Shown here piece after piece: positions 2,234 through 2,768 of a DNA stretch of 12,566 nt. How positions within the stretch are numbered: position 1 is the first letter of the stretch; each line of letters begins with the position of its first letter. Below the pieces are notes generated by a model that worked only from the letters and a program-made list of their open reading frames with translations, searched no databases and was not told where the DNA came from. The position numbers and the translations under genes are program-made. This DNA comes from a virus (taxonomy: Duplodnaviria > Heunggongvirae > Uroviricota > Caudoviricetes), in the IMG/VR virus record IMGVR_UViG_2534681831_000011. One strand, 5' to 3'.

Positions 2234-2768
2234 ATGAACGCAAAAATCAGATACGGCCTGTCGGCTGCCGTTCTGGCGCTGATTGGTGCAGGGGCGGTCT
2301 GCGCCTGACATTCTCGACCAGTTTCTGGATGAAAAGGAAGGTAACCACACCACAGCATACCGTGATGGTACGGGTATCTGGACCATCTGCCGCGGTGCCA
2401 TCCTGGTGGATGGTAAACCTGTCGTCCCGGGCATGAAGTTGTCGAAGGAAAAATGCGACCAGGTTAACGCCATTGAGCGTGATAAGGCGCTGGCATGGGT
2501 GGAGAAAAACATCAAAGTGCCGCTGACCGAACCCCAGAAAGCGGGGATCGCGTCATTCTGTCCGTACAACATTGGTCCCGGTAAGTGTTTCCCGTCGACG
2601 TTTTACAGACGAATTAATGCAGGTGATCGAAAAGGTGCCTGCGAAGCGATTCGCTGGTGGATTAAGGACGGTGGCAGGGACTGCCGTATTCGCTCAAATA
2701 ACTGTTACGGTCAGGTATCCCGTCGTGACCAGGAGAGCGCGCTGGCGTGCTGGGGAATCGACAGATAA
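2234..2768 (+). pseudogene. SAR endolysin (T4-lysozyme-like GH24 muramidase, R21-type) with an apparent +1 frameshift between the SAR segment and the catalytic domain
   Basis: ATG 2234 opens MNAKIRYGLSAAVLALIGAGA (a signal-arrest-release-like hydrophobic N-terminus) and hits TGA at 2306-2308. The catalytic domain (EGNHTTAYRDGTGIWTICRG...CYGQVSRRDQESALACWGIDR, with Glu/Asp/Thr catalytic-like residues) is in the next frame, open from 2283 to TAA 2766-2768. An extra G around 2296-2298 (GGGGCGGTCT) accounts for the shift. Confidence 0.75.

Follow-up and report, generated by a model that had tools for sequence, protein, structure and literature searches.

The closest described counterparts of the lysis locus examined here are the phage 21 endolysin R21 (PDB 3HDE/3HDF) and the E. 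coli prophage lysozyme RrrD (4ZPU). Both are GH24 lysozymes (PF00959) that carry a hydrophobic N-terminus rich in Gly, Ala and Ser and are encoded downstream of a holin of the S21 family. In Stx phages, holins of the P21 S family count as pinholins and are paired with signal-anchor-release (SAR) endolysins (PMC10462455). Lysozymes with 99.6% identity to the present locus over 700 bp are found in lambdoid prophages of O111, O157 and O26 strains and in Stx1a prophages (WP_000992167, WP_000992166 and WP_000992108), where they are encoded by intact, single 534-nt open reading frames. The endolysin BCI49852 of phage Stx1_EH1995 is likewise similar and lies in an identical gene order.

The window, meaning the whole stretch of DNA that was analysed, is the entire contig AIGG01000019.1 (12,566 bp) from the draft whole-genome shotgun assembly GCA_000249815.2 of E. 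coli DEC8B, an O111:H8 clinical isolate from 1986 that carries stx1, stx2 and eae (PMC7693793; PMC8044961). Its endolysin shares with R21 and RrrD the GH24 family, the positions of the catalytic triad, the composition of the N-terminus and the location downstream of an S21-family holin. It differs from both in that one extra G puts the N-terminal segment out of frame with the catalytic domain, and in gene order, as holin and endolysin are separated by a DUF1327 gene and endolysin and spanins by an Ant gene. The same G, private to the contig, sets it apart from the intact O111, O157, O26 and Stx1a lysozymes. All features given below are on the plus strand unless stated otherwise.

The N-terminal fragment of the endolysin occupies positions 2234-2308 and consists of 24 codons, from the ATG at 2234-2236 to a TGA at 2306-2308, that encode a predicted SAR-type hydrophobic segment (translation MNAKIRYGLSAAVLALIGAGAVCA). 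The first 21 residues are those of the intact 177-aa lysozyme. The catalytic domain (GH24, phage 21 R-like, with PF00959 matched on the restored protein) is read in the +1 frame at 2283-2768; this frame is closed upstream by a TGA at 2280-2282 and is open from 2283 to a stop at 2766-2768, giving 161 residues. The 534-nt lysozyme gene of E. coli O111:H- 11128 (L001:6085-6618, WP_000992167, 177 aa) was used as the intact reference. Alignment of window positions 2200-2420 with this gene gave exactly one added base, a G at 2296/2297, so that the contig reads GG where homologues have a single G (GCGGTCT against GCG-TCT), and two substitutions, 2309 A>C and 2312 C>T. Deletion of base 2296 resulted in a 534-nt open reading frame of 177 aa whose sole difference from WP_000992167 is E25D. 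Both substitutions recur in a second O111 prophage, whose lysozyme allele WP_000992108 is intact, and E25D is a natural allele. No further lesion was found in the lysozyme frame downstream of the shift. The first-pass annotation of this DNA had placed the SAR N-terminus and the lysozyme domain in different frames, attributed the split to a single extra G and expected that its removal would restore a reading frame of about 177 aa; the coordinates and frames were reproduced, and the alignment and the computed repair agreed with the remainder. As the comparison was made directly with a homologue of 99.6% identity, chance does not enter into the existence of the lesion. The depositors annotated the lysozyme remnant alone (89 aa, 2499-2768), together with a split esterase.

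The repaired protein matched Phage_lysozyme in Pfam (PF00959, E=1.9e-24) over residues 33-167. Residues 9-174, N-terminal segment included, aligned to PDB 3hde (E=1e-17), which was deposited under the name 'Lysozyme' and which we take to be the phage 21 endolysin, and to 4zpu (Lysozyme RrrD, E=2e-17). Endolysins of this family are defined by the catalytic triad Glu-8aa-Asp-5aa-Thr, and this spacing is found here as E35, D44 and T50 within KEGNHTTAYRDGTGIWTIC, aligned to LEGVSYIPYKDIVGVWTVC in 3hde. Residues 7-24 (YGLSAAVLALIGAGASAP) are hydrophobic, with a Kyte-Doolittle value of 1.9 and 61% G/A/S/T, and the Kyte-Doolittle maximum of the N-terminal fragment, 2.28, falls on residues 9-23. A hydrophobic stretch of this Gly/Ala/Ser/Thr-rich composition is the signature of a signal-anchor-release segment, as which residues 7-24 are predicted. 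Alternatively, the N-terminus (…LIGAGA/SAP…) could represent a signal peptide that is cleavable at an AXA motif. As written, the segment ends at TGA 2306 and does not form one polypeptide with the catalytic domain, to which it becomes joined upon removal of one G.

Two protein families of unknown function also map to the lysozyme gene. The 71-position family phrog_6543 matches exactly residues 1-71 of the repaired lysozyme (window 2234-2446, E=6e-37), which suggests that truncated or split N-terminal pieces of the endolysin gene have been annotated in other phage records. On the minus strand, a 149-aa antisense open reading frame at 2123-2572 lies over the lysozyme gene and matches phrog_22558 (E=1e-58), a family that is probably assembled from spurious opposite-strand gene calls.

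The gene at 1628-1834 encodes an intact class II holin of 68 aa, which PF04971 (E=1.2e-32) and PHROG holin families place in the P21 holin S (pinholin) family, whose members have about 68-71 aa. The PF04971 match spans profile positions 1-63 of 64 and the relatives annotate a class II holin. In length, in its full-length match and in a clear, strongly hydrophobic second segment at residues 33-51 the protein is like the S21 pinholin of phage 21. Residues 8-26, approximately, reach Kyte-Doolittle values of at most 1.0 in 18-residue windows and are compatible with a weak SAR-like first segment. Unlike in S21, no Met-Lys dual-start (antiholin) codon is visible upstream of the holin ATG at 1628. 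Given its family membership and the classification of related Stx-phage holins (PMC10462455), the holin would be expected to make small holes (~2 nm), too small for a folded endolysin to pass. A hairpin resembling a terminator, with an 11 bp stem that includes 7 GC pairs and a T-rich tail, was observed at 1547-1583, between the esterase and the lysis genes and about 50 nt before the holin start. A promoter and terminator scan of positions 1200-4700 returned nothing bearing on the endolysin split.

The DUF1327, Ant, Rz and Rz1 genes of the cassette are intact. A YdfR/DUF1327 protein of unknown function is encoded at 1839-2183 (PF07041, E=4.7e-46), and this exact protein is present on about 990 contigs. 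The endolysin is followed by an Ant-like antirepressor at 3039-3608 (PF10547, PF10549), which lies inside the lysis cassette, and the interval between Ant and Rz holds a conserved open reading frame at 3608-3754 for a strongly hydrophobic 48-aa protein of unknown function (phrog_4906, E=5.4e-30) that is annotated as 'hypothetical' in relatives. The Rz i-spanin is encoded at 3762-4229 (PF03245, E=4.9e-50) with the gene for the Rz1 o-spanin lipoprotein embedded in it at 3982-4167 (PF06085, E=1.7e-21). The order esterase-holin-YdfR-lysozyme-Ant-Rz, with an intact lysozyme, was found in prophages of O111, O157 and O103 strains and in Stx1a-converting phages. In two or more further O111 prophages, however, no Ant gene follows the lysozyme. 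The locus represents an ordinary lysis cassette of the phage 21 type, carried by a lambdoid prophage that resembles Stx phages. The first-pass annotation was right in its identification of this already well-known system, both for a putative phage-21-type endolysin with a hydrophobic, Gly/Ala-rich predicted export segment, in line with the PF00959, 3hde and 4zpu matches and the composition of YGLSAAVLALIGAGASAP, and for an upstream holin that its PF04971 match assigns to the predicted pinholin type.

Among complete genomes the closest relative of the contig is O111:NM FWSEC0005, at 98.0% identity. A site-by-site comparison of the O111 genomes 11128 and FWSEC0005 revealed no differences between them over window positions 1-2862. 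For positions 2150-2850 (700 bp), the best 40 matches were all at an equal DNA identity of 99.6%. The lysozyme region is present in 6-10 copies per related complete O111 genome.

The contig was also seen to resemble different prophages along its length, being similar to one O111 prophage type leftward, up to about 5.4 kb, and increasingly similar to the 95NR1 prophage at 2.22 Mb rightward. This succession of a type A prophage leftward and a type B prophage rightward is interrupted by many short alternations. Natural recombination or the joining of paralogues in assembly could have produced the mosaic. As the alternation is also expected of a third natural allele, and inspection of dense patches favoured neither reading, it was left out of the evidence for a chimera. 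Within the window, the exact TerS and TerL proteins (5516-7737) occur on the DEC8B contig only, among roughly 15 billion proteins, which is suggestive only as a pointer to a chimera. The exact Ant, Rz and YdfR sequences were each found on about 1,000 contigs.

In order to evaluate how widely the extra G is distributed, a 75-nt probe across the insertion was searched by megablast against 5,426 complete E. coli genomes. The probe matched 6,425 homologous places in 3,133 of these genomes and the extra G was present in none of them; the best three matches covered 74 of the 75 positions and differed from the probe by the gap alone. An exact scan for a 28-mer spanning the insertion gave no match in species-representative genomes, IMG/VR viral contigs or JGI metagenome contigs. 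The 161-aa and 160-aa translations from 2283 and 2286 were absent elsewhere in a collection of 15 billion proteins, and so was the repaired E25D allele as an exact protein. The base is thus neither confirmed nor corrected by any independent assembly, and the extra G is private to one draft contig.

The G at 2296 is one of six one-base indels that separate the contig from FWSEC0005. Two of these, at 1478 and 5253, are shared with other natural alleles while four are private. An additional A at 691 frameshifts the nanS-p gene for a SASA-family sialate O-acetylesterase (window 1-1182), splitting it into open reading frames at 3-692 and 496-1182 by a change of CCTGG to CCTAGG, and was found in none of 4,646 homologous places in complete genomes. 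The loss of a T upstream of the holin (1595-1598, T4 to T3) had no exact match in 2,850 places, and the loss of a T between the terminase and capsid genes (7776-7781, T7 to T6) had none in 2,914. All four private indels (691, 1595, 2296 and 7776) are situated within or directly after homopolymers. Both insertions copy the base of a 4-mer run located 1-3 nt upstream, as in ggggc[G]g (GGGG-C-[G]) and aaaacct[A]g (AAAA-CCT-[A]). Over positions 1-8008, each substitution state was found in at least one of 11 relatives compared, and the first 8 kb thus hold no private substitution relative to these 11. The terminase, capsid and portal genes account for about 54% of the contig and contain none of the four private indels; the probability of this under uniform random error is ~0.05, a figure that is qualified by the concentration of homopolymers in intergenic DNA. 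In the repeat region at 11100-12100, substitutions were found that are unmatched in any complete genome, with a best match of 98.3%.

Positions 11501-12067 in this region consist of a 162-bp tandem repeat (3.5 copies, 91% identity) that encodes 54-aa repeats in the open reading frame for the portal C-terminus. The only substitutions of the contig that are unmatched in complete genomes are located here, along with a compensated -1/+1 pair at 11518 and 11527. The portal region itself is read in two open reading frames, 9949-11313 and 11310-12533, with an ATGA overlap, and the second matches the C-terminal half (455-859) of the 859-position family phrog_2271. Five relatives cover this region: in four complete genomes PGAP annotates one 'frameshifted' gene of about 2,585 nt, and in the fifth, a Stx1a phage record, two portal coding sequences are annotated. 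The split is present in every relative examined and might represent a two-gene arrangement or a recoding event.

The probable origin of the extra G, in our assessment, is a homopolymer-associated sequencing or consensus error. This had been entered as a caveat in the first-pass annotation and is now the favoured explanation, given that the G is private and is accompanied by three further private, homopolymer-associated indels but by no private substitutions in 8 kb. Natural point mutations in E. coli are mostly substitutions, and four private indels with no private substitution are not a natural mutation spectrum; flow-based sequencing yields homopolymer-type indels in contexts such as these. 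The error would have arisen during assembly of a prophage region of which related O111 genomes contain multiple copies, and such a region is where a draft consensus is least reliable. The actual gene would then encode an intact 177-aa endolysin that is inserted into the inner membrane by Sec and that would be released and activated as the pinholin depolarises the membrane, a mechanism of export and release assumed by analogy with phage 21 R/S. Illumina reads assembled with a de Bruijn graph, if these were used, would speak against an error as consensus indels would then be unusual. The lack of indels in structural genes can moreover be read as the outcome of selection having filtered real mutations, and the substitutions at 11100-12100 show that private changes in the contig are not all indels. 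These points bear on the possibility, to which we assign a clearly smaller but appreciable probability, that the G is real, very recent and private to DEC8B and that the endolysin has become a pseudogene. A 24-aa membrane peptide would then be made, and the catalytic domain would either be untranslated or remain in the cytoplasm, beyond release by the pinholin. On its own the prophage would be lysis-defective, and the lysis cassettes of other prophages could rescue it after SOS co-induction. The deposited sequence reads in this way, the adjacent accessory gene nanS-p is frameshifted too while structural genes are free of private indels, and paralogous copies of the region are at hand in related O111 genomes. 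Lambdoid prophages of EHEC are often defective, yet inducible and transferable via prophage-prophage interactions (PMC2669165). In O157 Sakai, however, a full lysis gene set is present in 11 of 11 lambdoid prophages (PMC2669165). The spectrum of the private changes also argues against a real mutation, as does the absence of the lesion from all homologous copies in the census. The identity of 11128 and FWSEC0005 over 1-2862 would make four recent real changes surprising, and with the best 40 matches uniformly at 99.6% a recent divergence is unlikely to have yielded so many. Secondary decay is absent as well, since the downstream catalytic frame is undamaged. The earlier conclusion that the prophage should be lysis-defective would accordingly hold only if the base is real, and even then was overstated, as trans-complementation is plausible given the 6-10 copies of the region in related O111 genomes. 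If the mutation is real, the likeliest scenario is a plain knockout that is masked by the lysis cassettes of other prophages.

Two further explanations retain a function for the frameshifted gene. Translation of the catalytic domain alone, from TTG 2283, from GTG 2286 or by re-initiation past TGA 2306, would give a soluble cytoplasmic endolysin that is freed by another, large-hole holin in the cell; we regard this as very unlikely. Both start codons do open the lysozyme frame upstream of the catalytic E35, but no Shine-Dalgarno-like sequence was found ahead of 2283 or 2286 and the cognate holin belongs to the S21 family. Pinholins reportedly do not release soluble endolysins. The lesion is also private, so that no such arrangement has evolved. 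A start at TTG 2283 or GTG 2286 was rejected for want of a Shine-Dalgarno sequence and with a pinholin as the cognate holin. A real frameshift that is bypassed by +1 slippage, at G_GGG (2291-2294) or at GCC_UGA_C (2303-2309), with low production of the full-length SAR endolysin, appears more improbable still. The GGGG run falls within 2283-2305, the interval in which a shift is permitted, and in the hypothetical products the SAR segment would be retained along with the catalytic domain (...GAGRSAPDILD... from G_GGG and ...GAGAVCADILD... from GCC_UGA_C). As in the prfB +1 frameshift, the zero frame ends in UGA-C, a context in which termination is weak, and a G-rich stretch resembling a Shine-Dalgarno sequence is located upstream. 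Unlike in prfB, the slippery P-site codon is missing and the shift site is confined to one contig. The spacing is also wrong, with the AGGGG placed 8 nt upstream of GCC as opposed to the 3 nt of prfB-type sites. Re-pairing from GCC to CCU is poor, and the codon that follows GGG is the common GCG, which is neither a rare codon nor a stop. The site was not conserved, as a programmed or selected one would be, in that no homologue with the insertion was found among the 6,425 places and in the three collections scanned, and recoding has therefore not been under selection here. An Rfam search with the entire window returned nothing relevant to the split. Ribosomal slippage, which the first-pass annotation had named as a possible bypass, was not upheld, as no homologue has the shift site and the site is without a canonical +1 motif, and programmed frameshifting was rejected on the same grounds of conservation and motif. 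Should the G be real and slippage take place, a combination to which we attach only a minute probability, lysis would be attenuated or delayed for a prophage in an O111:H8 strain carrying stx1 and stx2, and phage or toxin, for example, could accumulate longer inside the cell before release.

The biological weight of the lesion is small. Pinholin/SAR-endolysin cassettes of Stx-like prophages are well described, frameshifted prophage genes are common and nothing at the locus departs from known biology. Its use lies rather in a warning that a frameshift of a single base, when met in a short, repeat-derived contig of an older draft, should be compared with the population before it is taken for biology. 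In this case the count over thousands of homologous copies and the pattern formed by the accompanying indels both point to an artefact. Were the lesion nevertheless real, it would represent another defective EHEC prophage that relies on co-resident prophages for lysis, and if the prophage is in addition an Stx prophage, which the contig itself does not show, it may be of minor relevance for the release of toxin and phage.
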